A stretch of DNA of 64,000 nucleotides. Source: an uncultured Acidobacteriota bacterium. GTDB taxonomy: Bacteria > Acidobacteriota > Thermoanaerobaculia > Multivoradales > DATKCC01. Positions 1,109 through 39,370 of this stretch are shown piece after piece. Made by a program: the position numbers and the translations under genes. Where the stretch lies: the NCBI GenBank assembly GCA_963843755.1, contig CAWJLS010000002.1, positions 385,279-449,278 of the forward strand. The letters run 5' to 3'. The first letter of the stretch is position 1. Every line of letters starts with the position of its first letter. Under the pieces are notes generated by a model. The model did no database searches. It saw only the letters and a program-made list of their open reading frames with translations, and was not told where the DNA came from.

Positions 1109-1110
1109 GG

Positions 1111-7764: not shown

Positions 7765-9431
7765 ATGACGCGAACGAAACGCGGTTGGATCTTGGTGATC
7801 TTGCTGGCCGGGCTGCTCCCGGCCCTCTGCTCCGTAGCACGAGCTCAGGACGATCCCGAGCCCGATCAGTCGCGCCCCCGAGGGCGGGCGAAGGGGGTCG
7901 TGCTGGACGACGACGGCGGGCCGCTGGCCGGCGCCACCATCAAGCTGGTGCCGGTCCCCGGACGGGGGGTCGAGCCCGGTCCGGGGGTCGAGGATCCGCG
8001 GTCGGTTCCGCGACCGGTATCCACTGACAAGAAGGGACGCTGGTCGATGGCCTTCCTGGAGCCCGGCGTCTTCTGGATCTCGGTCGAGGCCGAAGGGTTC
8101 CGTCCGGGCCAGGGATGGATCGAGGTGTCGGACGAGGGCCCGGGCGACGCCGTGACCGTGCAGCTCCAGGACCTGGACGTGGTCTCGCCGGAGTACGCCG
8201 AGGGGAACCCGCGGCAGTCGGTCGACGACTGGTTGAAGAAGGGTGACGCCCTGCTGGCTCAGGGGCAACCCGGCCAGGCGCGGGCCGAGTACCAGAAGGT
8301 GCTCGACACCCCGGGAGTGCTCGGCGACGCCGAGCGGGGCCAGGTGCTGGAGACGGTCGCCCGGACCTACTACCTGGAGGGCAACGCCCAGGCGGCGGTG
8401 CGCGCCCTCGAGGCGGCGCTGGTGCTGGCGCCGGACAACCAGCGCACGCGCCAGCTTCTGACCGTCCTGCTGGACGGCCAGGGGCGCAAGGGAGAGGCCG
8501 CGCAAGTTCCTCGACCGGCTGGCGAAGGACCCCGACGGCGTCTCCAAGGAGCTCGCCGACCTGGTCGGAGTGCACGAGGCGGACAAGGGAGAGGCGATCC
8601 CCGACGAGCCGGTGCTCCAGCCGCAGGCCGACCGGGTGGGGCGCTACCGGGTCGCGTTCACCGGCCACGCGCCGCTCGGCGACGTCGAGACGTTCATCGA
8701 CCGCTACGGGGCCGACCGGGGGGCGCTCGAGGCGTCCGACCCGTCGAAGAAGGACGGCGGGGAGGTCGACCTGTCCGCCGAGACCTTCCAGGTCTACGTG
8801 CCGGACGAGTACGCGAGCCAGGCGCGGGGGACGCCGGTGGGGCGTGGGGGCTGGTGGTCTGGGTCAGCCCGGGGCCGTACGGTGCCACCCGCCGCACCGA
8901 CGTCAGCGACGTGCTGCGCAAGCACCACATGCTGTGGGTCGGCGCCAACAACAGCGGCAACGACCGCTTCACCTGGGACCGGGTCGTCCTCGCCCTGGAC
9001 GCGGCCTACAACATGAACGCGCTCTACTCGATCGACCCGAACCGGATCTACGTCGCGGGGTACTCGGGCGGCGGCCGCATGGCCAGCGCCCTGTCGATCC
9101 TCTTCCCCGAGGTATTCCGTGGCAGCCTGATGGCGGTCGGTTGCGACAGCTACGGCCGATCGCGATCCCCGACCGTCCGGGAACCCACTGGCCGCCGTCG
9201 TTCAAGGAGCCTCCGAAGGATCGGCTGGACCGGGCGCGGCGCGACAGCCGCTTCGTCATGCTGACCGGCACCAAGGACTTCAACCGCGCCCAGTGCCGGG
9301 CGATTTACCACGCCATGAAGGACGACGGCTTCAGCCACGTGACCTACCTGGAGGTCCCGGACGGCAGCCACTACATGGGTCTGCTGCCGGAGTGGCTGGA
9401 CAAGGCGCTGACGGCGTTGGACGGGAGTTAG
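7765..9431 (+). pseudogene. exported CarboxypepD_reg - TPR - alpha/beta-hydrolase (esterase) protein, reading frame broken about 3 times
   Basis: Signal peptide MTRTKRGWILVILLAGLLPALCSVARAQ. Ig-like block GVVLDDDGGPLAGATIKLVP...TDKKGRWSMAFLEPGVFWISVEAEGF. A TPR region follows. Esterase part: GLVVWVSPG..., nucleophile elbow YVAGYSGGGRMA, ...EVPDGSHYMG. Homology jumps between ORFs 7765..9264, 8570..9016 and 8844..9431 near 8500, 8822-8847 and 9153-9156. Confidence 0.7.
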
Positions 9432-9573
9432 GTATCGTCGGCAAGGCGGCGCGGTGCCGTCGCTCCGTCGGGAGCCCGTGCCGTACCTGATGGAAGAAGG
9501 GCTTCGAAGGTCTGTGTTGAGTCCCGTGTGGAGAGTGCTGTGAAGAGGGTCCGGCCGGCCCGGCCGTGTCCAG

Positions 9574-11724
9574 GTGCGGGCCGCCGTCTGCGGTGTCGTG
9601 GCGCTCGCCCTGCTGGCCGGGTGCGGCGGGCCGTCTGGCCCGTCCGGGCCGGCGGCGAGGAGGTCCCCGCGGCGACCTCGAAGGGCGCTTCCACGTCCTC
9701 CGGCGGCCGCGGGGGCAGCGCCCAGAACGTCGTCCTGATCACGGTCGACACCCTCCGGGCCGACGCCCTCGGCTTCGCCGGCAACCAGAAGGTGTCGACG
9801 CCGGCCCTCGACCGGCTGGCCGCCGCGGGCCGGGTGTTCACCGACGCCCATGCCCAGAACGTGGTCACCCTGCCTTCCCACACCAACATCCTGACCGGCC
9901 TCTACCCCTACCAGCACGGGGTGCGCAACAACGGCGGCTTCACGCTGCGGGCCGGACGTGCCGACCCTGGCGACGGTGCTCCACCGAGCCGGTTTCGCCA
10001 CCGCCGCGTTCGTCGCCGCGTTCGTCCTCGATTCGCGCTACGGCCTCGACCGCGGGCTTCGACGTCTACGACGACGACCTGGGGGGCGCGGTCGAAGGGC
10101 AGGGCGAGCACCTGTTCACCTACCCCGAGCGGTCGGGCGACGAGGTGGTGGAGCGGGCCCGCCGCTGGTGGCAGGAGAACCAGGGCCACCGCCGCTTCGT
10201 CTGGCTGCACCTGTTCGAGCCCCACGCGCCCTACACGCCGCCCGCGGCCTTCGCCGGCGACGGGTCGGAGCCCTATCTGGGCGAGGTCTCGGCGGTCGAC
10301 TCCTATCTCGCGCCGCTGCTCGACGAGCTCCTCTCCGGACGCGAGCCGCCCACCCTGGTGGTCTTCACCGCCGACCACGGCGAGGCGCTCGGCGAGCACG
10401 GCGAGCTGACCCATAGCTTCTTCGCCTACGAGCCGACCCTGAAGGTGCCGCTGGTGCTGTGGGGCCCCGGGGTCGAGCCCGGGCGCGACGGCCGGGCGGC
10501 CCAGCACGTCGACATCATGCCCACGGCGCTCGGCCTGCTGGGGGTCGACCCGCCCGCGGACCTGCCGGGGCGGTCGCTCGTCGGGGCGCCGCCGGACCCG
10601 TCGCGCGTCTCCTACTTCGAGTCGCTCTCGCCGAACCTGGAGTACGGCGCCGCTCCGCTGCGCGGGGTGATCGGCCACGGGATGAAGCTGATCGAGCTGC
10701 CGATCCCCGAGCTCTACGACCTGAAGGCGGACCCCGGGGAGACCCACAACCTCATCCACGAACGGCGGCGGGAGGCCCGGGAGCTGGCCGCGGCGCTGCC
10801 CGAAGAGTCCCAGTGGCCGCCCGAGGCCGGAGACGATCGCGCCGGAGGAGGCGGAGAAGCTCAGGAGCCTCGGCTACCTGGGGGGGCTCGACCGGTAGAG
10901 GGGCCGCGAAGAAGGCCTCCTACGGCCCGGAGGACGATCCGAAGAACCTGATCGGCCTCGACCGCAAGCTCAACTCGATGGTCCAGCTCTACACCGCGGG
11001 GCGCTACGACCGGGCGGTCGCGCTGGGGCGTGAGATCGTCGCGGCCCGGCCGACGATGACGGTCGCCTACGAGTACCTCACGCGCATCCTGCTCGAGCGC
11101 AACGACAACGCGGCGGTGCTCGATCTGCTCGAGGCGGCGCGGCGTGCCGGGGCCGCCAACGGGGCGCTGCTCCAGCAGCTCGGGCTGAGCCTGGTGCGCG
11201 CCGGACGGCCCGCGGAGGCGGTGAAGGTGCTCGAGACGCTCGACCCGGACGCGTCCGGCGCGGATACCCTGAACGGCCTCGGCCTGGCATACTCGGCCCT
11301 CGGACGCTACGACGACGCGGCCGCCGTGCTCGAGCGGGCGGCGGCGGCCCGGCCGGACGACCCGCGGCCGCTCGAGACCCTGTCGTTCGTGGCCATCCAG
11401 CGGCAGCGCTATGCGGAGGCCCGCGACTACGCCCGCCGGGCGTTGAAGATCGAAGGGCGGCGGCCCGATGCCTGGAACAACCTGGGGATCGCCTACTACA
11501 ACCTCGGCGACGCCAAGACCGCGGTGGAGGCCTGGAAGCGGGCCGCGACGCTCGACCCGGGCAACCTCGACGTGCTGTTCAACCTGGGCACGGTGGCGGC
11601 CCGGATCGGCGATGCCGGCACCGCCCGCAAGGCGCTCGGCGCCTTCCTGGCGGCCGCGCCGGCCTCCGGCTACGCCGACGAGCGGCGCCAGGCGCAGAGG
11701 ATCCTCGACGGTGGCGCATCCTAG
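9574..11724 (+). pseudogene. AP-superfamily sulfatase-like hydrolase fused to TPR, lipoprotein (paralogue 1), frame broken about 5 times
   Basis: GTG 9574 gives MRAAVCGVVALALLAGC (lipobox). Then NVVLITVDTLRADALGF...VVTLPSHTNILTGLYPYQHGVRNNG...FVWLHLFEPHAPY...FTADHGEALGEHGE..., with TPR to the stop at 11724. Homology hops across four track ORFs (9528, 9958, 9566, 10459) and an unlisted frame. The breaks are near 9640-9652, 9948-9955, 10054-10056 (GGG), 10826-10830 and 10880-10886 (G7). Confidence 0.75.
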
Positions 11725-13492
11725 GGCATCGAACGGCGGCGGGCCCGCTTCCCGGTCGCTCGCCTGGCTCGCCTGCCTGGCGCTCGGTACGTCCGCGTTC
11801 GCCCCGCCGTCGGCGGGCGGCGCCGCCGAGCTGTTCGTCGACCGGGCGGCCGAGACCGGCCTCGACTTCGTCCACTTCAACGGCATGGACGGCGACCTCA
11901 ACTTCGCCGAGATGATGGGCCAGGGGGCGGGGCTGATCGACTACGACAACGACGGCGATCTGGACGTCTACATGGTCCAGGGAACCGTGCTCGGGGAGGG
12001 CAAGACGGTGGCGGACGCCGTCTTCCCGCCCAAGTATCCTCAGCCCTTGACCGATCGCCTCTACCGCAACGACAGCTCGCGCGGTCCAGACGGCAAGATG
12101 GTGGTGCGCTTCACCGACGTCACCGACCGGAGCGGCGACCTGGGGACCGGCTACGGCATGGGGGTGATCGCGGGCGACTACGACAACGACGGCTGGGTGG
12201 ACCTCTACATCACCAACCTGGGCTCCAACCAACTGCTCCACAACCGGGGCGACGGCACGTTCGAGGAGGTGACCGCCGCGTCCGGCACCGACGACCCCCG
12301 CTGGAGCGTCCCCGCGTTCTTCTTCGACTACGACCGGGACGGCTGGCTCGACCTCTACGTCGGCAACTACGTGGACTTCCGCGCCGCGACCAACAAGCCG
12401 TGCACCACCCCCGGGGGCGCCCGCGACTACTGCGGCCCTTCTGCGTTCAACCCGGAGCCCGACCGCCTGTTCCACAACCGGGGCGACGGCACCTTCGAGG
12501 ACGTGACGGTGGCCTCCAAGCTGTCGACCGAGTACGGTGCGGCCCTGGGAGCCACGGCCGCCGATTTCGATGGCGACGGCTGGGTCGACCTCTACGTGGC
12601 CAACGACGGCCTGCCCAACCAGCTCTGGCTCAATCAGCACGACGGGACGTTCGAGAACGGCGCCCTGCTCGGCGGCTGTGCGGTCAACGCCATGGGCCAG
12701 CCGGAGGCGAGCATGGGGGTCGTCACCGGCGATCTCGACGGCAACGGCACCGAAGACCTGTTCATGACTCACCTCGAGCGGGAGACCAACACCATCTACC
12801 TGAACGACGGCACCGGGATCTTCGAGGACCGTTCCCAGGAGAGCGGCCTCGGTGTGCCGAGCTGGCGCTACACCGGCTTCGGCACCGCCCTGATCGATTA
12901 CGACAACGACGGTCTGCCCGACCTGTTCGTGGCCAACGGTGCGGTGACGCTGCTGTGGGACGAGGTCCGGGCGGGCGACGTCTACGCCCTCCACCAGACC
13001 AACAGCCTCTACCACAACCTGGGCGGCGCCCGGTTCAAGGAGGTGACGGCCGAGGCGGGCAAGGTGTTCGAGCTTTCGGAGGTCAGCCGCGGTGTCGCCA
13101 TGGGCGACGTCGATCAGGACGGCGACTCGGATCTGCTGTTCTCGAACAGCGCCGGGCCGGCCCGCCTGCTGTTCGACCAGGTCGGTCAGGATCAGCCCTG
13201 GCTCGGCCTGCGCCTGGTCGGCGACCCGACGGGGCACGGGCCGCCGCGGGAGATGCTCGGCGCGCGGGCGATCCTCACGCGCCACGGCGCACCGACCCTC
13301 TATCGGGAGGCTCGGACCTGGGGCAGTTACGCCTCGTCGAACGACCCGCGGATCCTCTTCGGCCTCGGCGGCGGCACCGACCTGGAGACGCTCCGCGTCC
13401 AGTGGCCGGACGGCCGCACCGAGGAGTGGCGCGGGCTCGAGCCCGGGCACTACGCGACGCTCGTCGAGGGGGGCGGGAGGGAGGCGCCATGA
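11711..13492 (+). CDS. CRTAC1-type FG-GAP/VCBS repeat protein with ASPIC/UnbV C-terminus (paralogue 1)
   Basis: In ORF 11468..13492. Likely GTG start at 11711, overlapping the upstream stop. Signal SLAWLACLALGTSAFA. Repeated DYDNDGxxDLYV / LxxNxGDGTFE units. C-terminal WLGLRLVG...GARAIL...EARTWGSYASSNDPRILFGLGG...LRVQWPDG. Confidence 0.85.
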   Translation: MAHPRASNGGGPASRSLAWLACLALGTSAFAPPSAGGAAELFVDRAAETGLDFVHFNGMDGDLNFAEMMGQGAGLIDYDNDGDLDVYMVQGTVLGEGKTVADAVFPPKYPQPLTDRLYRNDSSRGPDGKMVVRFTDVTDRSGDLGTGYGMGVIAGDYDNDGWVDLYITNLGSNQLLHNRGDGTFEEVTAASGTDDPRWSVPAFFFDYDRDGWLDLYVGNYVDFRAATNKPCTTPGGARDYCGPSAFNPEPDRLFHNRGDGTFEDVTVASKLSTEYGAALGATAADFDGDGWVDLYVANDGLPNQLWLNQHDGTFENGALLGGCAVNAMGQPEASMGVVTGDLDGNGTEDLFMTHLERETNTIYLNDGTGIFEDRSQESGLGVPSWRYTGFGTALIDYDNDGLPDLFVANGAVTLLWDEVRAGDVYALHQTNSLYHNLGGARFKEVTAEAGKVFELSEVSRGVAMGDVDQDGDSDLLFSNSAGPARLLFDQVGQDQPWLGLRLVGDPTGHGPPREMLGARAILTRHGAPTLYREARTWGSYASSNDPRILFGLGGGTDLETLRVQWPDGRTEEWRGLEPGHYATLVEGGGREAP

Positions 13493-15444
13493 GGAGGCTC
13501 TTCCCACTTCCCGGGCTGCACGCGGCGGCCCGGGCCGTGCTCGCCGCGCTGCAGGCCGCCCTCCTGGCGGCCCTGGTTCTGCCCACGCCGCCCGCATGGG
13601 GCGCGCCGTCCGCCGCGCAGCAGCCTCCCGGACAAGCTCCCGGAGTCGCCTCCGGGGACGCTCCGTCCGCCCCATCGGCGGAAGCCGGGACCGACCTCGC
13701 GCCGCCGCGCCCGGACCTGGTCGCGGTGCCGGCGCCGCCGATCGCAAACCTGGAGCCGGGAGACCAGGAGCAGCTCAGCGACGAGCGGGCGGCCGTGGCC
13801 GAGCTGATCGCCGACAGGAGCGCCTCCGACGCGAAGCTGGCGGCGGCCTACGGACGGCTGGGCAGCCTCTATCTCCTCTACGACCTGTCGGAGGCCGCCG
13901 AACCGGCGCTGATCGATGCTCGCACCCTGCAGCCCGACGAGCTCGCCTGGCCGTACTACCTGGGCGTGCTCTACCAGCGCGACGGGCGCCTGACCGAGGC
14001 CGAGGCGAGCCTCGCCAGGGCCCACGACCTGAAGCCGGACGACCTACCGACCATGATCCGCCTGGGGCAGGTGCGGCTCGCCGCGGGCGACCTCGACGGC
14101 GCGCAGACGATCTTCTCGACGGTCTACGAGCGCGAGCCGCGCTCCGCGGCGGCCCTCGAAGGGCTGGGAACGATCGACGTCCGCCAGAAGCGCCCCCAGC
14201 AGGCGATCGAACGCTTCCAGCGGGCGCTCGAGCTCCAGCCGGGGGCTGACATTCTCCATCACCAGCTCGGGCTCGCCTACCGCGACCTGGGAGACCTGGA
14301 CAAGGCCAAGGAGCACCTCGCCCTGAACAAGGGCGGCCGCGTCCGCTTCTTCGACCCGCTGATGGACGGCCTGACCGGTCTGCTCCGCGGGGCCTCGATC
14401 CACCTGAAGCGCGGCAACAACGCTCTCAAGGACGGGCTGGTGGATGTGGCGATCCGGGAGTACCGCCAGGCCGTCGCGATCGACCCGAAGGACCCCAAGA
14501 ACCAGTACAACTTGGGCTTCGCGCTGGTCAAGGCGGGGCAGCGCGACGAGGCGATCGGCTACTTCGAGAAGGCGATCGAGCTCGACCCGGGGTACCGCGA
14601 CGCTCACTACAACCTGGCCGCCGCGCTGGCCGAAGAGGACCGGTGGGATGAGGCCGTCGGGCACTACGCCAAGGCGGTCGAGATCGATCCCCTCGACCAC
14701 GCCGCCCACCTGGAGTGGGCCCAGGCGCTGCTCCGGGTCGGCAAGAGCGATCGCGCGGCCGAGGAGCTCGAGGCGTTGCTCGGCCAGCTCCACGGCGACG
14801 AGGTGAAGCTCGCCGGCCAGGTGCACCTCGAGCTCGCCCGCCTCCGGCAGAAGGCCGGTGACGAGGAGGGCGCGCTGGACCACTTCCGGAAAGCCGCGTC
14901 GAGCCTGCCCGACTCCCGCGCCGCCCACGAGGAGCTGGCGAAGCTGCTGGGCCGGAGCGGTCAGTTCGGCGAGGCGGCGGGGCAGCTCGACCGGGTGGTG
15001 GAGCTCGCGCCCCGGGAGGTCGACCCGCGGTTCGGCCGGGCCATGGCCCTGATCCTGGGCGGCGAGTACCGGCGCGCCCGCGAGAACCTGGAGGCCGATC
15101 TCGACGTGCTGCCCGGCAACCCGGTCCTCTCCGACCTGCTGGCCCGGCTGCTGGCGACGGCACCCGACCCGGCTGCCCGCGACGGCGCCCGGGCGGTCGC
15201 CATGGCCGAGGCGGCCTTCCGCCGCCAGGCCAACCTGGAGCGGGCGGAGACGGTAGGCATGGCCTATGCTGAGGCGGGACGGTTCGACGACGCGGTCACC
15301 TGGCAGCGGCGGGTGCTCGGCCAGGTGGAGCCCAAGGGGCGGCCCGAGGTGATCGCGCGCAACCGGCGGTACCTGGCGCTCTACGAGGAGGGGAAGCCGG
15401 TGCGGAGCCCCTGGAGCCCGCCGCGAGGAGGAGACGCGAAATGA
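13489..15444 (+). CDS. exported TPR-repeat protein
   Basis: ATG 13489 (ATGA overlap with the upstream stop), in frame with ORF 12400..15444. Hydrophobic N-terminus LAALQAALLAALVLP. About 12 TPR-like units (e.g. AWPYYLGVLYQRDGRLTEAEASLARAHDLKPDD, YNLGFALVKAGQRDEAIGYFEKAIELDPGY). Confidence 0.8.
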   Translation: MRRLFPLPGLHAAARAVLAALQAALLAALVLPTPPAWGAPSAAQQPPGQAPGVASGDAPSAPSAEAGTDLAPPRPDLVAVPAPPIANLEPGDQEQLSDERAAVAELIADRSASDAKLAAAYGRLGSLYLLYDLSEAAEPALIDARTLQPDELAWPYYLGVLYQRDGRLTEAEASLARAHDLKPDDLPTMIRLGQVRLAAGDLDGAQTIFSTVYEREPRSAAALEGLGTIDVRQKRPQQAIERFQRALELQPGADILHHQLGLAYRDLGDLDKAKEHLALNKGGRVRFFDPLMDGLTGLLRGASIHLKRGNNALKDGLVDVAIREYRQAVAIDPKDPKNQYNLGFALVKAGQRDEAIGYFEKAIELDPGYRDAHYNLAAALAEEDRWDEAVGHYAKAVEIDPLDHAAHLEWAQALLRVGKSDRAAEELEALLGQLHGDEVKLAGQVHLELARLRQKAGDEEGALDHFRKAASSLPDSRAAHEELAKLLGRSGQFGEAAGQLDRVVELAPREVDPRFGRAMALILGGEYRRARENLEADLDVLPGNPVLSDLLARLLATAPDPAARDGARAVAMAEAAFRRQANLERAETVGMAYAEAGRFDDAVTWQRRVLGQVEPKGRPEVIARNRRYLALYEEGKPVRSPWSPPRGGDAK

Positions 15445-19171: not shown

Positions 19172-19272
19172 GGGGCGAGCATGCTACCAGCTCGCCCGGC
19201 CGGCTTCCCTCGGCCGGCGGCGTGCCCGGGGCGGGCCCGGACCCCGACTCGGACTCCGGCCCGGGTCCCGGT

Positions 19273-21692: not shown

Positions 21693-21706
21693 CGGGTGAG
21701 GGTAGC

Positions 21707-28614: not shown

Positions 28615-28675
28615 TCACAGTGGCTTCGTGCACGGACGGATCTTAGCAGTCCGGGGCTCGCGGCGCGAACCGGCC

Positions 28676-30582: not shown

Positions 30583-32730
30583 CGGTTCCGGGCCACCTGG
30601 AGCAGGCGCTCGGCCGAGCCCGGGTCGCCCAGGAGCCTCATGGCCTGCGCCGCCTCGGCGTAGGCGGTGGGAGTCTGGTTGGTCTCGACGAGCTGGCGCA
30701 GCACCGCGCCGGCCTGCGGGCCCTGGCCCGAGAGGGCGTAGACCACGGCGAGCCGGGTGTAGGCGGCCAGCTCCGCGGGATAGAGCTCGATCTCGTGGCG
30801 GAAGGCGGCGATCGCCTCCTGGGCCTGACCGAGCTGGGCCAGGGACTCTCCCTGGATGTAGTAGAGACCGCGGATGAACTCCTGATCGTAGCCCTCCTTC
30901 TCGACGTCGGCCTCGACCTCGCGGGTGAGGCCGAGCGCCTTCTGGGGCTCACCCCGCTTGAGCAGGAGCTGGGCCTTCGTGATGCGTACCGACGGCTGCT
31001 CGTTGCCGGCGGCGATCGCCTTCTCGACGTAGTCGGCGGCGCTGGTCGAGGTCGCCCTGGCGGATGGCGATCTGCGCCAGCAGGTCGAACGCCTGGTCGT
31101 ACTCCTTGGACGCCACCAGGGCGAGGCGCTTGGCCTCGTCGAGCCGGCCGAGCCGCACCAGGCAGCCGGCCATGGTCAGCGACGCGTAGGGCGAGCCGCC
31201 GGTGAGCTTCATCTGGTGGTCGAAGGCTTTCAGCGCCTCGCGCGGCCGTCCCAGGCGCAGCAGGCTGTTGCCCATGTACTCCCAGGCGTCGACGAGCTGG
31301 GGCTCCTGGTCGAGGATCTGCTGGTAGACGCCGACAGCCTGCTCGTACTGGCCGGCCTCGGCCAGGTCGAGCGCCTTGCCCAGGAGGTTCAGCACCTCGA
31401 GCTTGGTCTTCGGATCGGCCAGGGACTCCTCGCCCCGGTTGCCGACCGAGCCGACGTAGCCGAGCGCCTCGAGCTGCTTGCGCACCTCCGGGTCCTCGGT
31501 CTGGTCCGGCTCCTGGAACGAGCCGTCATACCTCTCGAGGGCGTCGCGGAGCCCGGCGTAGGTTCGGCGCTGTTCCTGGATGATGTTGTGCTCCTCGCCC
31601 GGGTCCTTCTCCAGGTCGTAGAGCTCGCGGTCCGGCCCCTGGATCAGGTGGTACGGGTACTCGATGACCGAGGTGAGCTCGCTCCAGCCGAAGTGGATGC
31701 GGGGGAACTGGGTCTCGCCGTAGATCGGCCGCTGCTGAGCCTCGTCCAGGGTCAGGAGAGACTGGCCCTCGAGCTCCTCCGGCTGGTCGATGCCGAGCAG
31801 CGAGAGCACGGTCGGCACCAGGTCGGTGAGCTGCGCCGGGGCGTCGCTGGTGGTGCCGCCGCGCTGGTTGCCGGGGAGCTTCACCACCAGCGGGACCTGG
31901 AGGACGTCGCGGTAGAGCAGCGGGCCGTGCTCCTGGAAGCCGTGGTCGCCCAGCCCCTCGCCGTGGTCGGAGACGAAGAAGACGAGCGCCTTGTCGTAGA
32001 CCCCGAGGCGCTCGAGCTCGGCGATCAGCCGGCCGATGAGGTCGTCCGCCGAGGCGATCTCGCCGTCGTAGGCGAGGGTGTAGCGCGAGGCGAACGGCTC
32101 CGGCGGGTCCCAGGGGCGGTGCGGCTCGTAGAGGTGGAAAAAGAGGAAGAACGGGGAGCCCTTGACCGACTCGAGCCACGGCTCCACCGCCGCCAGGGTC
32201 TGGTCCCCCTTGCGCTGGGCGCTGCCCATCTTCCACGTCCGCTGGAGGATGTTGTCGTCGTAGAAGTCGAAGTCCGACGACATGCCGGTGGCGGCGCGCA
32301 GGACGAAGGCGGAGACCGCGGCGCCGGTCTTGTAGCCGTGCTGCTTCAGGATGCGCGGCAGCCACGGGTGGTTGGCGGCGTCCAGGTGATACCCGAGGTT
32401 GCCGCGGACGCCGTGGTCGGCCGGGCGCAGGCCGGTCAGCATGGACGAGTGCGAGGGCAGGGTGAGCGGGACGTGGCTGTAGGCGTGGCGGTAGAGGATT
32501 CCGTCCTGCCGTAGGCGGTCGAGGTGCGGCGTCTCGACCTTCTGGTACCCGTACATGGGCAGATGGTCGGAGCGCAGGGTGTCGACCGAGATCAGGATGA
32601 CGGGGGTGCCGGGAGCGGCGTGGATCTCCGGCGCGGCCCCCTTCTCCTCGCCTCCGCAGGAGGCTCCGAGGATCAGGGTGCCCGCCAGCAGAACCAGGCC
32701 GAGACGGTGGGTCCAGGTCGACGTCTTCAT
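30543..32730 (-). pseudogene. AP-superfamily sulfatase-like hydrolase fused to TPR, lipoprotein (paralogue 3), single frame break
   Basis: ORF 30949..32730: MKTSTWTHRLGLVLLAGTLILGASC (lipobox), VILISVDTLRSDHL, VPLTLPSHSSMLTGLRPADHGVRGN, FFLFFHLYEPHRPWDPP, SDHGEGLGDHG, then TPR. After about 31041-31046 the TPR continues in the frame of ORF 30543..30746 (AADYVEKAIAAGNEQ...YALSGQGPQAG...NAPALRETAR). Confidence 0.8.
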
Positions 32731-34979
32731 TCACTGCTCCGTTGCCCCAGCCGTGCCAGGGTGGCCCGGGCCTTGGCGAGGTCCGGGCCGTACTGCGCGG
32801 GGTCGGCGACGGCCACGAACTGCTCGAGCGCCTTGCGCGCCCGCGACGTCTCGCCGGCTTCCGCCGCGACGAGCCCCAGGTTGAAGAGGAGATCCGCGTT
32901 GCGGGGCTGGAGGGCGACGGCCCGGTCCCAGGCGTCGAGGCTGTCGTGGACCTGGCCCAGGTTGTAGAGCGCGACCCCGAGGTAGTTCCACGCTCTCGGC
33001 AACTGGTCGTTGAGCGCGAGGGCCTTGCGGGCCTCCGAGCGCGCGTCCTCCCAGTGCTGTGTGCGCAGGGCGACGAGAGCGAGGTTCTGGTGGGCGACCG
33101 GATTGCGCGGGTCCTGCTTGAACACCTGCTCGAACGCGGCCCGTGCCTCGTCCTGCAAGCCCCCGGTGGTCAGGGCGACGCCCATTGCGTTGAGCGCGTC
33201 GGGATCTCCCGTCGCGGCGAGCGGCTGGAGGACGATGATCGCCTCGCGGGGGTTCCCGAGCTCGGCGAGCAGGAGGCCGAGCTGGCGGTCCGCGGACGCC
33301 GTCGACACGTGCCGGTCGTGGGCGTCCTGGAGGACCTTGAGCGCCTGGCGGTCGAGCCCCTGCTGGAGCAGGACCTGGGCGTAGTAGTTGTAGGCGATCC
33401 CCATGTCCGGCCGCGCCGCGACGATCTTCTCGATGAGGGCGGTCGCTTCCTTCAGCTTGTTGGCCTGGTACAGGTCGATGAAGTGGTGGAAGTCCCGGTC
33501 GATCCCCACCAGGTTCTTCGGGTCGTCGGCCGCGGTGTAGTGGGTCTTGTGGTCGGCGCTGCCGGCGAGGTAGCCGAGGCTCTGGAGCGCGGCGGCCTCC
33601 TTGCCGGAGAGCGCGCCCGCGGGCGGCGGCCACACGGACTCTTTCGGCAGCAGGTCGGCCAGTCGGCGGGCGCGCCGCCGGTCCTTGTCGAACAGGTTGT
33701 TCGTCTCGCCGGGATCGGCCTCGAGGTCGTAGAGCTCGGGAACCGGCAGGGCGATGAGCTTGTAGCCCCCCGCGATGACCCCGCGCAGCGGCGCCCAGCC
33801 ACGGCTCATGTTCGCCGACAGGGCTTCGAAGTACGACGCGCCGGCCTCCGGGCTCTTCGGCGCGGGCCCGAGCAGGCTCCGGCCGGGGAGATCGGCCGGC
33901 ACGGGCAGTCCGGCGGCGTCGAGCACGGTCGGCAGGATGTCGATGTGACGCACCAGCCCGGTCGAGGTGCCGGAGCGCACGTCGGGCCCCCAGAGGACGA
34001 GCGGGATGTGGAGGGTGGCCTCGTAGGTGAAGAGGCTGTGGGTGGTCTCTCCGTGATCGCCCAAGGCCTCGCCGTGATCGCCGGTGAAGACGATCAGGGT
34101 GGCCCCCTCCTTGCCGTCGAGGAACGGCTGGAGCAGGGGAGTGAGGTCGTGATCGACCGCCGCGACTTCGCCCAGGTACGGTTCGGAGGCGTAGCGCGAG
34201 GCGTACGGCTCCGGCGGGGCGTACGGCGCGTGGGGGTCGTAGAGGTGGATCCAGAGGAACCGCTTGCGGTTCCGGTGGGCGTCCCACCAGGCCTTGCCGC
34301 GGGCCACGACCTCGTTGCCCGGCCGTTCCAGCTCGCGGAACTGGTTCTCTTCGGCGCCTTCGCCGTACTGGTCGTCGTAGAGGTCGAATCCCCGGTCGAG
34401 ACCGAAGCGTCCGTCGAGCGGGAACGCGCCGACGACGGCGGCGGTGGCGAAGCCCACGTCGTGGAGCCGGGTCGCCACGGTGGGGACGTCGTCCCGGAGG
34501 ACGAACCCGCCGTTGTCCCGGACGCCGTGCTGGTAGGGGTAGAGACCGGTCAGGATGTTGGTGTGGGACGGCAAGGTCACCACGTTCTGGGCGTGGGCCT
34601 CGGAGAAGACCCGTCCCGCGGCCGCGAACCGGTCGAGGAGAGGCGTCTTGACCCGGTCGTTGCCGGTGAAGCCGAGGGCGTCGGCCCGTAGCGTGTCCAC
34701 CGTGATCAGCAGGACGTTCTCGATCGGCTTTTCGGAGGTCCGGATCGGCTCGTCGGCCTCGCCGGGTGTGGCGGTCCCGGCTGCCGCGGGTCCGGCTTCG
34801 GTGGCGGCGGGTCCGGCTTCGGTGGCCGCGGGTCCGGCTTCGGTGGCCGCGGGCGCTACCTCGGCGGTCGGTCGTCGGCTCTCGGCCGCTCCGTTCGAGC
34901 CGCCATTACAGCTCCACACCGCGGCGCCGGCTGCCAGGAGGCAGCCGGCGAGCAGTGCCTGGAGTGAGGCGCGCGTCAC
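32727..34979 (-). CDS. AP-superfamily sulfatase-like hydrolase fused to TPR, lipoprotein (paralogue 4), intact
   Basis: ORF 32727..34979 (750 aa), GTG start in a GTGA overlap. LLAAGAAVWSC lipobox-like signal, (PAATEAG)x3 linker, NVLLITVDTLRADALGF, VVTLPSHTNILTGLYPYQHGVRDNG, FLWIHLYDPHAPYAPP, TGDHGEALGDHGE, and about 280 aa of C-terminal TPR. Confidence 0.88.
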   Translation of the reverse strand: MTRASLQALLAGCLLAAGAAVWSCNGGSNGAAESRRPTAEVAPAATEAGPAATEAGPAATEAGPAAAGTATPGEADEPIRTSEKPIENVLLITVDTLRADALGFTGNDRVKTPLLDRFAAAGRVFSEAHAQNVVTLPSHTNILTGLYPYQHGVRDNGGFVLRDDVPTVATRLHDVGFATAAVVGAFPLDGRFGLDRGFDLYDDQYGEGAEENQFRELERPGNEVVARGKAWWDAHRNRKRFLWIHLYDPHAPYAPPEPYASRYASEPYLGEVAAVDHDLTPLLQPFLDGKEGATLIVFTGDHGEALGDHGETTHSLFTYEATLHIPLVLWGPDVRSGTSTGLVRHIDILPTVLDAAGLPVPADLPGRSLLGPAPKSPEAGASYFEALSANMSRGWAPLRGVIAGGYKLIALPVPELYDLEADPGETNNLFDKDRRRARRLADLLPKESVWPPPAGALSGKEAAALQSLGYLAGSADHKTHYTAADDPKNLVGIDRDFHHFIDLYQANKLKEATALIEKIVAARPDMGIAYNYYAQVLLQQGLDRQALKVLQDAHDRHVSTASADRQLGLLLAELGNPREAIIVLQPLAATGDPDALNAMGVALTTGGLQDEARAAFEQVFKQDPRNPVAHQNLALVALRTQHWEDARSEARKALALNDQLPRAWNYLGVALYNLGQVHDSLDAWDRAVALQPRNADLLFNLGLVAAEAGETSRARKALEQFVAVADPAQYGPDLAKARATLARLGQRSSE
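34786..34852. repeat. 21-bp tandem repeat x3 (gcgggtccggcttcggtggc[gc])
   Basis: Units at 34786-34806, 34807-34827 and 34828-34848. Encodes (PAATEAG)x3 just after the lipobox of sulfatase-like paralogue 4. Confidence 0.9.
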
Positions 34980-36139
34980 TTCGACGGCGACTCCAGATAC
35001 TTGAGGAACTCCTTGGCGTCCTTGGCGTACTGGCTGTCCGGGGCGAGCTCCAGGAGCTTCTCGAAGTCCGCCTTGGCGTGCTCGTTGTCACCCCCGTTGA
35101 GGTAGACCAGCCCGCGGTAGTAGTAGGCGTCCGCCATCTTCGGATCCTGGCGGATGACGCGCTGGAAGTTCTCCATCGCCATCTTCAGCTTGTCCTGGCT
35201 CCCCTCCTTCGTCGACTCGTTGTAGAACCGGATGCCCTGGTTCAACAGCATGTCGGGCGGCAGCTCCGCCGTCTCGGGGATGCGGTCGAGGTAGGTCTGG
35301 GCCTCCTCCTCCTTGCCCTCGCGGCTCAGCAGGTCCGCGATGAGCTGGAGCGCCTGGATGTTGTCGGGCGACGCGTCGAGGATCCGCTTGACCGACGCGA
35401 TCGCCTGCTCGCGGTTGCCCTCCTGGTCGTAGCTGCGGGCGATGGCGAGGAGCACCTGGGTCTGGCTCTCCGGCGGCAGCCCCGCCAGGCTCTGCTCGTA
35501 GACCTCGCGCGCCTTGGCCGACTCGCCCTGCTGGGCGTACGAGTCACCGAGACGCAGCAGGACGCCGGTCTTCTCGGAGTCCTCGAGGCCGGGAAGCGCC
35601 TTCTCGTACTCGCTGCGCGCCTGCTCGAAGCTCTTCTGGGCGTAGTAGGTGGTACCGATCAGCGCGTGAACCTGCGCCTTCTGGTGGTCGTCCATGTCGG
35701 ACAGGACCGCCTGGAACTTGGTCCGGGCCTCGTCGTACTTGCCCTGGTCGATCAGGTCCTGACCCTGCTGGATGACGTCGAAGGGGTTCTTCTCGAGCTG
35801 GATGACCACCGGCTTCGAAGGGTGGAACTCGTCGACCTTGAAGGTTCCCTCGGAGTCCTTGTATCCCTCGGCCTGGATGACGACTGTCCAGACGCCGCCG
35901 GTCAGGCCCAGGTAGCTCCAGCGGCCCCTCTTGTCGGTCGTGAGCGGTGGGGGGCCGGCATCCGGGCGACCGGGGAGGTGCAGGGTGATCTTGGCGCCCG
36001 CGATGGGGGAGTTGCTCTGGTCGGTGACGCGGCCGTTCGCCCGCCCTCGTCCGACCCAATCCTGTGCGGTCGCCGGCAGGGCCGCGAGCATCAGGACGAG
36101 GGCCGCGAAGAGGGGCGTCTTCCAATTCTTGACGTGCAT
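34976..36139 (-). CDS. exported CarboxypepD_reg - TPR protein
   Basis: In ORF 34976..36211. ATG 36139 is preceded by AAGGAG. Signal MHVKNWKTPLFAALVLMLAALPATAQ. GRVTDQSNSPIAGAKITLHLPG...TDKRGRWSYLGLTGGVWTVVIQAEGY. TPR units to the C-terminus. Confidence 0.85.
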   Translation of the reverse strand: MHVKNWKTPLFAALVLMLAALPATAQDWVGRGRANGRVTDQSNSPIAGAKITLHLPGRPDAGPPPLTTDKRGRWSYLGLTGGVWTVVIQAEGYKDSEGTFKVDEFHPSKPVVIQLEKNPFDVIQQGQDLIDQGKYDEARTKFQAVLSDMDDHQKAQVHALIGTTYYAQKSFEQARSEYEKALPGLEDSEKTGVLLRLGDSYAQQGESAKAREVYEQSLAGLPPESQTQVLLAIARSYDQEGNREQAIASVKRILDASPDNIQALQLIADLLSREGKEEEAQTYLDRIPETAELPPDMLLNQGIRFYNESTKEGSQDKLKMAMENFQRVIRQDPKMADAYYYRGLVYLNGGDNEHAKADFEKLLELAPDSQYAKDAKEFLKYLESPSK

Positions 36140-36261
36140 CGTGCACTCCTTGTGGGGATCGTCAAACAGGACGCCGAACCTCGCGTACGGTCCGGCGCTC
36201 GGGTCCTTCAACCTTCTGGAGGCAGGGATTATGCCGACGGCCGGGCGCAGTCGCGCCCAAA

Positions 36262-36294
36262 GAAAAACCGCCGGGGGGTTGCCCCCCCGGCGGT
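36262..36294 (-). terminator. rho-independent terminator after the TonB-dependent receptor gene
   Basis: Minus strand: accgccgggggg-caa-ccccccggcggt followed by TTTTT (plus-strand A-run 36263-36267), 23 nt after the stop at 36317. Confidence 0.7.
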
Positions 36295-36316
36295 CGAGAC
36301 TACCGAATGTGTCGAC

Positions 36317-39300
36317 CTAGCGCCAGTTCAGGCGGAAGCCGAGACGGTAGATCCGCGGCGACAGCGACTCGGTGACGAAGTTCGCCGTCGGCGCCTGCAG
36401 GCTACGGTCGCGCTGCAGGATGTAGTTCTCGTTGGTCACGTTGAACGCGTCCAGCGAGAGCACGCCGCTGAGGTTGTCGGTGAACGCCATGTCCTTCTCC
36501 ACGCGGAGGTCCAACGTGTAGACGTTGTCCGCGCGGAACTGGTCGACGCTGCTCACCACACCGGCGGCGAGCTGCGAGGCAGCGCGGTTGGTGACCGCCG
36601 TCTGGTAGGTGTACGGCAGCGGGTAGCCCTCGCGAGCGAAGAAGTTGCCCGCGACGTTGAAGCCCCACGGCTTGTCCGGAGCGACCTGGTAGAGGCCGTT
36701 GATGTTGGCCGACCAGGTCGACTGGATCAGGACGTCGGTGAACGGACCGGAGCCACCGGACTGGACGGTGTAGAGCGCGCCGTCCTTGTCCGACAGATCC
36801 TGGGCCTGCGTCGGGTCGTCGAAGCGAAGCGTCTCGGAACCGACGTTCCACTTGGAATCGCCGTACTGGAAGTAGCCGCGAGCCATCCACCGGTTCGCCA
36901 GACGCTTGGTCAGCGTCAGGCCGGCGCCCTTGTACTCGACCGAGGAGTCACCGTTGGTCAGGTACGAGCCACCGGCCGGCGAGAGGCCCGGAGCGAAGGA
37001 GTAGAAGTCCGCCGACCACGGCGTGCCGTCCGGCAGGTTCGGCGCGGTGCAGCCGGCGCCGTTGCCGATCGAGCAGACCGTGTGGTCGAGGACGTAGTCG
37101 TTACGGGTCGCGACCCGCTTGACACCGTTCCCGTCGATGATGAACTCACGGGTCTCGAGCAGGTCGGACGTCTTACGGTAGGTGAGGTCGAGGCCGACGA
37201 CGAACTCAGGCAGGAACGCGTGCTCCACGCTCGCCAGGAGCTCGTCCGTGACGGACGGCTTGAGGTCCGGATCGGTCTCGTTCGGGTTCTCGAGGGCCGT
37301 GGGGTTGGCCGGATCGAAGCCGCCGAAGCCGGCCAGGTCGAAGGGCTCGCCCACGTCGTAGTAGTCGTTGCCGTTCGTGTCGTTGAAAGCGACGGTGATG
37401 TTGGCGTAACCCAGGGGGTTGAGCCGGGTGATGTTACCGGTCTGGAGCTGCTCGGCGAACCGGGAGTAGCTGGCCCGCAGCAGGGTCTTGCGCTCGGCAC
37501 CGAGGGCGTAGGTCACGCCGACGCGCGGCGAGAAGGTATTCCAGGTGAACGGAGCGTCGGCGCCCTGGTAGTTGAGCGTCGGCAGGATGTTCGAGAACAC
37601 CGGGTTCGACTCGACGGTGGCAGCGGCGTTCTTGCCCTCCTGCTTGTCGTAGCGAAGACCGGCGTTGATCGTCCAGCTACCGGTGGTGATGGTGTCCTGC
37701 AGCCAGCCGGCGGTGTACTTCTGGGTCGATTGCGGGCCCGCCGAGCCACGGACCGCGATGGCGAGGTCGTCGCCCACGTAGCCGAAGCTGGTGAGGACGC
37801 CGCACAGGCCCTGGGACTCGCAGGTCAGGTTGGCGATGTTCCGGCCGCCGACCCAACCGAAGGCGGAGACGGCGTCGAACTTCCGGTAAGAGACACCGAA
37901 CTTCAGCTCGTGGTTGAGGTTGCCGGTGTTGAAGAAGTAGGAACCGTCGACCTGGTAGTTGTCGGTGTTCCGGTCGGTGCTACCGCTGTACCAGCCGTTG
38001 TGCCAGATACCGTCGGTGCCTTCCACGGACTCGCCCTGGGCGATCGCGGTCGCCGTGTCGGCGGTCCGGCCGCCGGGGAACTGACCGCCCTTGGACTGCA
38101 GGGCGAAGCCACCGTCGACGTAGGAGTACAGGCCGGTGAGGTAGAGGTCGGCCGAGAACACGTGGGTGTCCTCGATCTTCCAGATCTCGGTCGGGCCGGT
38201 CTGGTTCCAGGAGGCGTCGATGTCGCGGTTGGAAACGGAGGTCCGCCCTTCCTTGATCTTGTCGCCACGGTTCCAGGAACCGACGATCGAGTTGTTCGAC
38301 AGGGGCTGGCCGTTGAACTTCACCGCGCTGTTCTCGAGCACGGTGTTGTCCGGGGAGCCGTCCTGCTTGAACTGCTTGATGTCGTTCTTGCCCCAGGAGC
38401 CCCAGACCCACAGCCGGTCGCGAACGATCGGGCCGCCGGCCTCGAAGCCGAAGTCGTCGATCTCGTTGATGTTGTTGCCAGGCGTGCTGGCAGCCGTCTG
38501 CTGGTTGAAGCCGCCGTTGCCGTCGCCGTTCTCGAGCTCGCCGGCCAGGTCGCTCTTGCCCTGCTTGAAGACGTCGAACTGCTTGGACGCGTCGGTCTTC
38601 AGGAAGCGGGCGGAGCCGCGCGGGTTGTTCGAGCCACGCTTGGTAACCAGGTTGAGGGAGGCGCCGGACGAGATCTTCTCGACGTCGGTGCCGCCGGTGG
38701 AGACCTGAATCTCCTCGAACTGGTCGAAGTCGTAGTAGGTCGGCGACGAACCGATCGCCGCCATGTCGGTGATGACGACACCGTCGACCGCGAAGCTGTT
38801 CTCGTTGTCGGACACGCCAGGAGCGGTGAACACGGCCTGCTGGCCGGAGTTGTTACCGCCGACGTTGATCCGGTCGGAGAGCACGCCCGGGGTCTGGGTG
38901 ACGATCGACCACGGGTCACGGGCCGTCGGGATCTTCTCCAGCTCGATCTGGGAGACCGTCGTGCCGGCGCTGACCTTGCGCTCGTCGAGAAGCGGGCTCT
39001 CGGAGGTCACGGTGATGACCTCTTCCACCGCCGGCGAGAGCTTGATCGCCAGGGTGGTGTTCCGACCGACCCGGATGTTGACGTTCGGGTACTCGACGGT
39101 CGAGAACCCTTCCAGGCTCGCGCTCAGAGCGTAGTTGCCCGGGTCGAGGTTCAGGAAGCGGAACTGCCCCTGAGGACCGGTGAACTGAGTGCGCGGCGCA
39201 CCGATCCCGCTGAGCTCGACGCGGACACCGGGGAGGGCACCGCCCTGGTTGTCCGTGACGGACCCGTAGAGGTTACCGGTCTGCTGCTGAGCGAACAGAC

Positions 39301-39370
39301 TGCCCGTGCTCGCCAGTAGCAGCACCGCGGCGACGACGAGAATGCGTCGCCAATTCGTAAATCGACTCAT
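36317..39370 (-). CDS. Oar-like TonB-dependent receptor / outer-membrane beta-barrel with CarboxypepD_reg N-domain
   Basis: In ORF 36317..39541. ATG 39370 is preceded by GGAGGAG. Signal MSRFTNWRRILVVAAVLLLASTGSLFAQ. GSVTDNQGGALPGVRVEL...FRFLNLDPGNYAL. Plug-like VITVTSESPLLD...IPTARDPWSIVTQTPGV...VDGVVITD. Terminal ...PRIYRLGFRLNWR. Confidence 0.88.
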   Translation of the reverse strand: MSRFTNWRRILVVAAVLLLASTGSLFAQQQTGNLYGSVTDNQGGALPGVRVELSGIGAPRTQFTGPQGQFRFLNLDPGNYALSASLEGFSTVEYPNVNIRVGRNTTLAIKLSPAVEEVITVTSESPLLDERKVSAGTTVSQIELEKIPTARDPWSIVTQTPGVLSDRINVGGNNSGQQAVFTAPGVSDNENSFAVDGVVITDMAAIGSSPTYYDFDQFEEIQVSTGGTDVEKISSGASLNLVTKRGSNNPRGSARFLKTDASKQFDVFKQGKSDLAGELENGDGNGGFNQQTAASTPGNNINEIDDFGFEAGGPIVRDRLWVWGSWGKNDIKQFKQDGSPDNTVLENSAVKFNGQPLSNNSIVGSWNRGDKIKEGRTSVSNRDIDASWNQTGPTEIWKIEDTHVFSADLYLTGLYSYVDGGFALQSKGGQFPGGRTADTATAIAQGESVEGTDGIWHNGWYSGSTDRNTDNYQVDGSYFFNTGNLNHELKFGVSYRKFDAVSAFGWVGGRNIANLTCESQGLCGVLTSFGYVGDDLAIAVRGSAGPQSTQKYTAGWLQDTITTGSWTINAGLRYDKQEGKNAAATVESNPVFSNILPTLNYQGADAPFTWNTFSPRVGVTYALGAERKTLLRASYSRFAEQLQTGNITRLNPLGYANITVAFNDTNGNDYYDVGEPFDLAGFGGFDPANPTALENPNETDPDLKPSVTDELLASVEHAFLPEFVVGLDLTYRKTSDLLETREFIIDGNGVKRVATRNDYVLDHTVCSIGNGAGCTAPNLPDGTPWSADFYSFAPGLSPAGGSYLTNGDSSVEYKGAGLTLTKRLANRWMARGYFQYGDSKWNVGSETLRFDDPTQAQDLSDKDGALYTVQSGGSGPFTDVLIQSTWSANINGLYQVAPDKPWGFNVAGNFFAREGYPLPYTYQTAVTNRAASQLAAGVVSSVDQFRADNVYTLDLRVEKDMAFTDNLSGVLSLDAFNVTNENYILQRDRSLQAPTANFVTESLSPRIYRLGFRLNWR

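Follow-up and report, generated by a model that had tools for sequence, protein, structure and literature searches.

Layout of the locus

We analysed a window of 64,000 nucleotides from an uncultured Acidobacteriota bacterium of the class Thermoanaerobaculia (assembly GCA_963843755.1, contig CAWJLS010000002.1, positions 385,279 to 449,278), in which two strings of genes encoding mostly exported proteins, among them an Oar-type receptor and a set of sulfatase-fold lipoproteins, face each other. All positions below are those of the window. The window has a G+C content of about 71%, and plain lists of its open reading frames (ORFs) are full of spurious frames. Genes were called from the periodicity of G+C at third codon positions (GC3) along a seven-state Viterbi path, the path was translated, and each product was checked against Pfam. 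The resulting cluster comprises 17 genes (G1 to G17, Table 1), eight of them intact and nine broken as assembled. The plus string extends from the start of G1 to the end of G5 (7765-17140) and the minus string from the start of the Oar-type gene G17 to the end of G10 (39370-23698). Gene order, strands and outer coordinates in a first-pass annotation, which had been made from the sequence alone, were thus right, and every domain family named there was recovered by the Pfam search in the order given. Two products combine CarboxypepD_reg with tetratricopeptide repeats (TPR; G1 and G16), four combine Sulfatase (PF00884; E 1e-37 to 1e-50) with TPR (G2, G6, G14 and G15), four carry FG-GAP_3 and UnbV_ASPIC domains (G3, G5, G9 and G11), and G4 and G10 are TPR-only products. 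The others include a GT2 (G8) and a PMT_2 glycosyltransferase (G7), a methyltransferase (G12), the Oar-type receptor (G17) and a deiminase-like protein (G13). Signal peptides or lipoboxes occur on every product but the methyltransferase and the two glycosyltransferases, in agreement with the earlier statement that nearly all products are exported. The sulfatase-fold genes, which belong to the alkaline phosphatase (AP) superfamily and are fused to TPR, are termed AP-TPR here, with a SulfA type (G2, G15) and a SulfB type (G6, G14). The region is a real gene neighbourhood typical of Acidobacteriota, here of a Thermoanaerobaculia type, and consists of two separately conserved modules.

An Oar-type receptor gene is linked to AP-TPR genes

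A search with G15 returned more than 7,400 relatives, mostly from metagenome-assembled genomes (MAGs) of Thermoanaerobaculia and named 'sulfatase-like hydrolase/transferase'. Scanning one genome per GTDB species with AP-TPR yielded 80 loci, all from Acidobacteriota and spanning Thermoanaerobaculia, Vicinamibacteria, Aminicenantes, Terriglobia and Solibacteraceae. To these came five loci obtained by exact look-up, with tblastn used to map the flanks. Oar-type genes were counted in the 58 loci with at least 6 kb of upstream sequence, other neighbours in the 40 full loci. In 28 of the 58 loci, nearly all from different Acidobacteriota species, an Oar-type gene stood directly upstream of AP-TPR in a same-strand chain, and 17 of these 28 chains also contained a CarboxypepD_reg-TPR gene. 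The Oar-headed chains came from Thermoanaerobaculia, Aminicenantes and unclassified Acidobacteriota. Even under a generous chance rate of 5% this adjacency has a probability of about 2e-21, and the density of Oar-type genes was 41 per Mb in AP-TPR loci versus 4.5 per Mb in loci anchored on CRTAC1-type genes. The linkage thus exceeds what copy number would produce by chance, and this part of the association proposed in the first pass is well founded. At least two AP-TPR genes were present in half of the full loci (20/40). Further neighbours were genes for the von Willebrand factor A-type family TIGR03436 (VWFA, 13/40) and, within 8-10 kb, CRTAC1 (7/40); the methyltransferase (3/40), the G13 family (3/40) and PMT_2 (2/40) were confined to the closest relatives. 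An Oar-type gene, in part followed by a CarboxypepD_reg-TPR gene, and then one to three AP-TPR genes with a threonine nucleophile therefore constitute a conserved operon type in Acidobacteriota, which we named module A.

The receptor G17 carries a CarboxypepD_reg extension (PF13620, residues 34-111, 57.3 bits at a cut-off of 32.3) and an OMP_b-brl_4 barrel (82.3 bits, cut-off 30), together with a marginal Plug match (24.3 bits, cut-off 23.9). It showed no sequence-level match to any solved structure, and exbBD or tonB genes were not found among the Pfam-scanned genes of the window. The 4-nt start/stop overlaps described earlier are present at seven of about 13 same-strand junctions (G3/G4, G4/G5, G16/G15, G15/G14, G14/G13, G12/G11 and G11/G10), an arrangement indicative of coupled translation; the junctions Oar/G16, G13/G12, G1/G2 and G7/G6 are without overlap. 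A spacer of 177 nt that contains a hairpin and a T-run separates the Oar gene from G16. The same element follows the Oar gene in the related loci L001 (about 8676-8710), L002 and L006, and in L004, L011 and L022 the stems have different sequences that still pair. By its sequence this element looks like a terminator or attenuator that would separate expression of the receptor from that of the downstream lipoprotein genes. Because hairpin and T-run are kept in relatives, the receptor gene is probably insulated from the genes next to it, or more highly expressed than they are. At odds with the description of the Oar gene as head of the minus string, a strong terminator hairpin stands between it and the following genes.

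Table 1. Genes and other features of the locus, in window coordinates.
Feature	Position	Strand	Description	State or remark
G1	7765-9431	+	signal peptide, CarboxypepD_reg, TPR, C-terminal alpha/beta-hydrolase-like domain (GYSGG)	three frameshifts near 8490, 8840, 9154
G2	9568-11724	+	SulfA lipoprotein (LLAGC lipobox), sulfatase fold (T-L-P-S-H) and TPR	five insertions at 9664, 9948, 10053, 10820, 10884
G3	11711-13492	+	exported CRTAC1-type FG-GAP beta-propeller with UnbV_ASPIC	intact
G4	13489-15444	+	exported TPR protein, ATGA overlaps with G3 and G5	intact
G5	15441-17140	+	CRTAC1-type propeller	two frameshifts near 16686, 16949
G6	17130-19171	-	SulfB lipoprotein, sulfatase fold and TPR	four frameshifts near 19080, 18390, 17416, 17333
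G7	19184-20930	-	PMT_2 membrane glycosyltransferase (GT-C, ArnT/PMT-like)	one frameshift near 20140
G8	20894-21700	-	GT2 glycosyltransferase (ArnC/DPM-like)	one frameshift near 21497
G9	21707-23635	+	CRTAC1-type propeller	intact; true start probably near 21920
G10	23698-25364	-	exported TPR protein	two frameshifts at 24417, 23779
G11	25361-27700	-	divergent CRTAC1-type propeller, helical N-terminal extension of about 240 aa, ATGA overlaps with G12 and G10	intact
G12	27697-28614	-	class I SAM methyltransferase without signal peptide	intact
G13	28676-30546	-	exported, N-terminal helical domain and predicted PAD/agmatine-deiminase-like pentein fold	four frameshifts at 29917, 29303, 28963, 28854
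G14	30543-32730	-	SulfB lipoprotein, sulfatase fold and TPR	one inserted base at 31045
G15	32727-34979	-	SulfA lipoprotein, sulfatase fold and TPR, Ala/Glu/Pro/Thr-rich disordered linker after the lipobox	intact
G16	34976-36139	-	exported CarboxypepD_reg and TPR, GTGA overlap with G15	intact
Hairpin	36266-36295	-	intrinsic-terminator-like, 13 pairs (11 G-C), then T-run, between Oar gene and G16	
G17	36317-39370	-	Oar-type TonB-dependent transporter: CarboxypepD_reg, Plug, OMP_b-brl_4 barrel	intact
Promoter match	39526-39554	-	sigma-70-like, TTGACC, 17-nt spacer, TACACT, upstream of the Oar gene	consensus match only
TPR protein	39931-41118	+	weak transglutaminase-core match, divergent from the Oar gene	syntenic in L001, L002, L006
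acidobact_VWFA (TIGR03436), two in tandem	41141-43428, 43490-45628	+		first with two frameshifts at 42408, 42514

The AP-TPR enzymes carry a threonine variant of the sulfatase signature

All four AP-TPR enzymes read T-L-P-S-H-x3-L-T-G, which corresponds to the sulfatase signature with cysteine replaced by threonine and arginine by histidine. T-L-P-x-H was found in 52 of 52 homologues, with T135, L136, P137 and H139 invariant and S138 present in at least 90%; D95, H245, H250, D301 and H302 were invariant as well. The formylglycine motif C/S-x-P-x-R occurred in none of the four copies and in none of the 52 homologues. No maturase (FGE or anSME) was detected among the Pfam-scanned window genes; one may be encoded elsewhere in the genome. 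An AlphaFold 2 (AF2) model of G15, with a predicted local distance difference test score (pLDDT) of 84.6, placed a disordered tether after the lipobox, followed by the catalytic domain and about seven TPR repeats. The linker (residues 23-75, pLDDT below 50) would be typical of a flexible stalk. Its coding stretch (34770-34910, minus strand; residues about 23-70) is rich in Ala, Glu, Pro and Thr and contains three tandem AATEAGP repeats.

The nearest folds of G15 in the PDB were S1 carbohydrate sulfatases and phosphonate monoester hydrolases (Foldseek, E about 1e-18), and sequence search agreed. With these enzymes (7stt, 5g2v, 4uph, 2w8s and EfAS, 9koq) the AP-TPR proteins share the fold (TM-score about 0.6-0.7, target-normalised), the Asp and Asp-His metal ligands, an H-x4-H motif and the signature x-x-P-S-x-x-x-x-L-T-G. 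They differ in a threonine nucleophile instead of a Cys or Ser converted to formylglycine, in the exchange of the motif arginine for histidine, in the addition of a lipoprotein tether and, at the C-terminus, of a TPR domain (about 260 aa), and in that no maturase gene accompanies them in the window. D301-H302 of G15 shows the same arrangement as the Asp-His metal pair reported for phosphonate monoester hydrolases and EfAS (PMC12421950). The Phosphodiest family (PF01663) scored 67-71 bits on G6 and G14 and 33-37 bits on G2 and G15; on each of them Sulfatase scored much higher. A threonine nucleophile is used by phosphoryl-transfer enzymes belonging to the alkaline phosphatase superfamily. Because the nucleophile is threonine, the substrate might, with low certainty, be a phosphate ester rather than a sulfate ester.

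CRTAC1-type propellers and TPR proteins form a second module

G9 matched the structure of human CRTAC1 (9etn; phmmer, E 1.5e-20). In common with CRTAC1 and the ASPIC/UnbV family, the propellers of the locus have FG-GAP_3 repeats with Dx[DN]xDG calcium-binding loops and a C-terminal UnbV_ASPIC domain, whereas the bacterial proteins lack an EGF domain and are paired, and translationally coupled, with TPR proteins. A literature search on the function of bacterial CRTAC1/UnbV proteins retrieved nothing relevant, and we know of no function for this family in any bacterium. Metagenomes were scanned with a CRTAC1 alignment, which gave 80 loci at 33-46% identity, 50 of them at least 8 kb long. A TPR gene was directly adjacent to CRTAC1 in 31 of the 50, and 22 contained at least two propeller genes. 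AP-TPR appeared in none of the 50 (2/80 overall) and Oar in four. Together with the seven of 40 AP-TPR loci that had a CRTAC1 gene nearby, these counts remove CRTAC1 from the conserved core in which the first-pass annotation had placed it. Because CRTAC1 and AP-TPR rarely share loci in either direction, the supposed cassette is better described as two modules side by side. Within Thermoanaerobaculia a G3-type propeller and a G4-type TPR gene, then a G5-type propeller and a G10-type TPR gene, lie beside SulfA in several orientations, and a propeller/TPR operon of this kind was found next to SulfA in L012, L013, L022-L026, L033, L040 and L146. Module B thus consists of CRTAC1-propeller/TPR arrays that are widespread on their own and stand beside module A only within Thermoanaerobaculia.

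A deiminase-like family and further accessory enzymes

G13 matched no Pfam, NCBIfam (even at E up to 1) or PDB entry by sequence, including PF04371 and PF03068. It belongs to a family of about 600 aa with 162 homologues, all annotated 'hypothetical' and confined to Acidobacteriota MAGs (entries include L002 14451-16331 and proteins P0121-P0240). W-x-R-D, F-H-N-G and a C-terminal GGYRCAS, with C600, are invariant. The AF2 model of an intact orthologue (pLDDT 91.5) retrieved PAD3, PAD4 and agmatine deiminases in Foldseek (E about 1e-9, probability 1.0), so that the label 'deiminase-like' given earlier was right by model and fold search. The resemblance to PAD and agmatine deiminases (PAD3 7dan, 6nib, 3h7c) covers the predicted fold, the C-terminal catalytic cysteine motif GGYRCASN, W-x-R-D and F-H-N-G, while a signal peptide, an additional helical domain at the N-terminus (about 190 aa) and the lack of a sequence-level family match set G13 apart. 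Judged from the model, the family is a candidate for secreted, Acidobacteriota-specific enzymes that modify guanidino groups.

The GT2 and PMT_2 genes G8 and G7 form a pair resembling ArnC/ArnT- or PMT-like pairs, with another pair of this kind at 50539-51336 and 48838-50532. In contrast to the known pairs, G8 and G7 are directly followed by an AP-TPR lipoprotein gene (G6), an order repeated in L002. The set of accessory genes is not constant among close relatives either, CRTAC1 being absent from L002 and the deiminase from L001.

The two strings are old paralogues

The two strings had been described as two copies of one cassette. What holds is the shared order of a CarboxypepD_reg-TPR gene and SulfA, with clear paralogy; the plus string has no receptor gene and the remaining correspondence is weak. 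G1 and G16 are 32% identical over the first 250 aa, G2 and G15 53% and the SulfB pair G6 and G14 43%, with about 32% between the A and B types. Among the propellers, G5 and G9 share 50% and G3 and G9 41% identity, G11 is divergent (about 30%), and the TPR proteins G4 and G10 are weakly similar (27%). The order common to both strings is CarboxypepD_reg-TPR, SulfA and, further on, a propeller and then a TPR protein. The minus string has orthologous loci in L001, L002 and L006 (69-84% identity; G17 and G11 are 84% and 83% identical to their L001 orthologues), and the plus string is found in the same order on metagenome contig L100 (G1 50% over the full length, G2 82% and intact there, G3 82%, G4 70%). 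Orthologous loci thus exist elsewhere for both strings separately; the two are ancient paralogues, at 32-53% identity, and not a recent duplication in this genome.

Divergence from L001, L002 and L006 is uneven, with 75-84% identity in the block from the Oar gene to CRTAC762 and 51-67% in the adjacent TPR388, VWFA and PMT_2 genes; among themselves the three loci are 78-86% identical in the latter genes. Such a pattern could arise if the block had been recombined or transferred, or if constraint differed greatly.

A transporter-centred system as the tentative function of module A

We tentatively read module A as a transporter-centred system for substrate capture and processing, with module B and the other genes as accessories, and put the probability of this reading at about 0.4. 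Its build would be an Oar-type transporter gene, the hairpin, and then a translationally coupled CarboxypepD_reg-TPR gene with one to three AP-TPR lipoprotein genes. The tethered, putative esterases would act on a polymeric substrate by removing or cleaving its ester groups; their TPR arrays, together with the CarboxypepD_reg-TPR protein, would provide docking to partners, and the product would cross the outer membrane through the Oar-type transporter. Module B, the PAD-like deiminase, the methyltransferase and the GT2/PMT_2 pair would have accessory roles. Such a system would be akin to SusC/D utilisation loci with sulfatases, or to bipartite receptor/lipoprotein pairs. Like the SusC/SusD loci of Bacteroidota that contain S1 sulfatases, module A has a TonB-dependent transporter with an N-terminal CarboxypepD_reg-like domain, and behind it genes for proteins with TPR-like helical repeats and for lipoproteins that are enzymes of the S1-sulfatase fold; in both cases a genome carries many paralogous copies. 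Unlike them, it showed no SusD homologue, glycoside hydrolase or HTCS/ECF regulator in scans of the window, has Thr-x-P-S-His in place of Cys/Ser-x-P-x-R, uses classical TPR fusions, places a terminator after the transporter gene and belongs to the phylum Acidobacteriota. In Myxococcus xanthus, the TonB-dependent transporter Oar is needed for secretion of PopC (PMC6434023). G17 shares with that protein the N-terminal CarboxypepD_reg extension, the Plug and a large barrel, whereas no PopC-like protease gene lies near this locus. Receptor-linked loci of exported enzymes are already known as a kind; a literature search gave no publication on this combination, the papers on Oar/PopC and EfAS being the relevant ones retrieved.

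Several observations weigh against the proposed system. The strong terminator between the receptor gene and the rest leaves co-transcription unproven. Among 118 unclassified neighbour ORFs of AP-TPR loci only TPR recurred (18), and no inner-membrane transporter, regulator, ExbBD/TonB set, catabolic enzyme or glycoside hydrolase was recurrent there. Glycan-degrading enzymes and a dedicated regulator were likewise neither present in the window nor recurrent in these ORFs, and no product of the window matched a SusD-family Pfam model; the neighbour of the transporter gene instead encodes CarboxypepD_reg with classical TPR. No neighbour gene points to uptake or catabolism. Substrate and chemistry are guesses, and we know of no characterised threonine variant of the sulfatase fold.

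The absence of uptake and catabolic genes and the linkage of GT2/PMT_2 add weight to an alternative that goes back to the first-pass annotation, namely an envelope-building or secretion machine. Here TPR proteins would serve as scaffolds of a complex in the periplasm or at the surface, the AP-fold enzymes would act on an envelope polymer as transferases or modifiers comparable to LtaS, EptA, OpgB or BcsG, the GT2/PMT_2 pair, methyltransferase and PAD-like enzyme would modify envelope glycans or proteins, and the Oar barrel would export a component. The dominance of TPR proteins among the conserved neighbours fits this picture, as do the direct link of G8 and G7 to G6, repeated in L002, the wealth of envelope genes in the wider window (the second GT2/PMT_2 pair, PagL, TamB and Omp85) and the precedent of secretion through an Oar-type transporter. 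Yet in fold the catalytic domain is nearest to soluble S1 sulfatases and phosphonate monoester hydrolases rather than to LtaS or EptA, and it has no N-terminal membrane domain such as the known transferases possess. The GT2/PMT_2, methyltransferase and deiminase genes are restricted to the closest relatives (2-3 of 40 loci) and are thus not core, and polysaccharide synthase or export genes are not present. We consider such a machine the main rival, though unlikely. It would also be a long shot, of similar odds, that the transporter-centred system is a widespread bipartite outer-membrane machine of the Acidobacteriota's own, in which classical TPR domains, carried by the CarboxypepD_reg protein and by the lipoprotein enzymes, would cap or dock the Oar barrel as SusD does SusC. 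Ester polymers such as organic phosphorus would then be processed at the mouth of the transporter, or the barrel would export the lipoproteins themselves. If this were true, it would provide a first function for part of the large Oar-type receptor and TPR expansions of a soil phylum and define a new catalytic subclass of the sulfatase fold.

That there is no system at all is improbable for module A: a pile-up of expanded Acidobacteriota families (Oar, TPR, VWFA, CRTAC1 and sulfatase-like proteins) brought about by copy number and by genes duplicated in tandem, in which operons would span only two or three genes, would explain why CRTAC1 and AP-TPR are unlinked outside Thermoanaerobaculia, why accessory genes vary between L001 and L002 and why the VWFA proteins match a model built for an Acidobacteria-specific family, but it is at odds with an Oar/AP-TPR adjacency far above plausible chance, with the translational coupling and the conserved intergenic hairpin, and with the G3-type CRTAC1/TPR operons beside SulfA in the loci listed above.

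Acidobacteriota are among the most abundant soil bacteria, and Oar-type receptors, TPR proteins and 'sulfatase-like' genes, all without an assigned role, abound in their genomes. An operon type that recurs across at least two classes of the phylum offers a concrete, testable unit for the cargo of such receptors, and it allows one to ask whether the threonine-nucleophile enzymes mobilise organic phosphate or sulfate. Both the T-L-P-S-H variant of the sulfatase fold and the exported PAD-like deiminase family, which falls outside the domain libraries, deserve biochemical study.

Frameshifts in the assembled copy

About 23 frameshifts break nine of the 17 genes (three in G1, five in G2, two in G5, four in G6, one each in G7, G8 and G14, two in G10 and four in G13), and two more in the first VWFA gene bring the total to about 25 frame disruptions. 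The first-pass annotation made no mention of them, though half of the genes are affected. At the frame switches in these genes the coding signal along the GC3 path moves from frame to frame without a stop. Paralogues and intact orthologues align across the switches without loss of residues, so the switches are real features of the sequence as assembled. Where DNA alignment with an orthologue was possible and sites could be placed, the change was nearly always one extra base outside homopolymers (9948, 10053, 10820, 31045, 29917, 29303, 24417, 23779 and 42408), and the control genes Oar, G11 and G15 had no insertions in the same alignments. The broken genes contain no in-frame stops and no large deletions, and GC3 stays above 0.9 throughout. 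The catalytic motif of G13, NGGYRCASN, survives, and divergence from L002 shows no excess (3-5 identity points in frameshifted genes, 2-4.5 in intact ones). Related contigs carry Flye-style names and belong to MFD-labelled MAGs, which we take to be Microflora Danica long-read assemblies. In L001 (8839-10004) the CarboxypepD_reg-TPR gene was called as two pieces of 328 and 66 aa. The intact 386-aa protein of L002 aligns to L001 in two pieces, so that at least one frameshift of the same kind is present in a sister assembly of the same project.

Because stops and extra divergence are absent, motifs are kept, the insertions of single bases fall outside homopolymers and the relatives are of long-read type, consensus errors of a long-read metagenome assembly are the likeliest source of the roughly 23 frameshifts, ahead of gene decay. 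What speaks against such errors is the clustering: the 23 frameshifts lie within 23 kb, stretches of 5.8 and 4.9 kb inside the same region are free of them, and none falls in the window's other coding sequence of about 38 kb. Since they cluster by gene, plain random sequencing error is not a sufficient account. Real frameshifts, which would make G1, G2, G5, G6, G7, G8, G10, G13 and G14 recent pseudogenes while Oar, G16, G15, G11, G12 and G3/G4 still work, are the less probable but serious alternative. Three to five disruptions in some genes beside untouched neighbours and clean coding sequence elsewhere are the pattern expected of decay, in which a dead gene collects several. The same absence of stops, large deletions and GC3 loss, the equal divergence from L002 and the preserved catalytic motifs speak against it, as do the insertions of nearly always one base outside homopolymers, which differ from the indels usually seen in bacteria. 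The clustered pattern is poorly explained by random sequencing error and by ordinary pseudogene decay alike.

Three local causes were examined and rejected. The sites lie mostly outside homopolymer runs. The motif TCGA, considered as a methylation motif, occurs at 12.5 per kb here, and its enrichment at the sites was weak and absent at the less precisely placed ones. The stretch at 56-62 kb has equally high G+C and no frameshifts. In practice, the genes in this copy of the locus cannot be taken as intact before the frameshifts have been resolved.

Flanking genes and probable insertion site

The tail of G1 gave weak Peptidase_S9 and Abhydrolase_3 matches around its GYSGG motif. The whole block (7.7-45.6 kb) sits between a ThrRS/L20/PheST block (1-5456, minus strand) and a ZapA/RNase Y/YmdB block (45629-48780, plus strand). 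In the relative L003 (14909-22151) PheT/PheS/L20/ThrRS and ZapA/RNase Y/YmdB are contiguous and co-directional, which implies that an insertion, that of the 38-kb cluster, went along with an inversion here.

The TPR/transglutaminase-like gene and the two TIGR03436 genes divergent from Oar recur in L001 (1-5222), L002 (578-5153) and L003 (1715-8708) and may represent a third linked module. The VWFA proteins (712-737 aa) had no Pfam or PDB match and were recognised by NCBIfam as TIGR03436, a model built for an Acidobacteria-specific VWA family on which a literature search found nothing relevant. Envelope genes populate the right flank (48838-63923), among them a PMT-like gene (51496-53415), a PagL lipid A deacylase gene (53654-54172), TamB (56401-60624) and a gene for an Omp85 protein that has five POTRA domains (60633-63923). 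In the left flank the ORF for ribosomal protein L20 (2147-2872, minus strand) encodes 241 aa, of which only residues 3-109 form the L20 domain; L20 of L003 has 125 aa. The long ORF reflects either a C-terminal extension or a lost stop codon.

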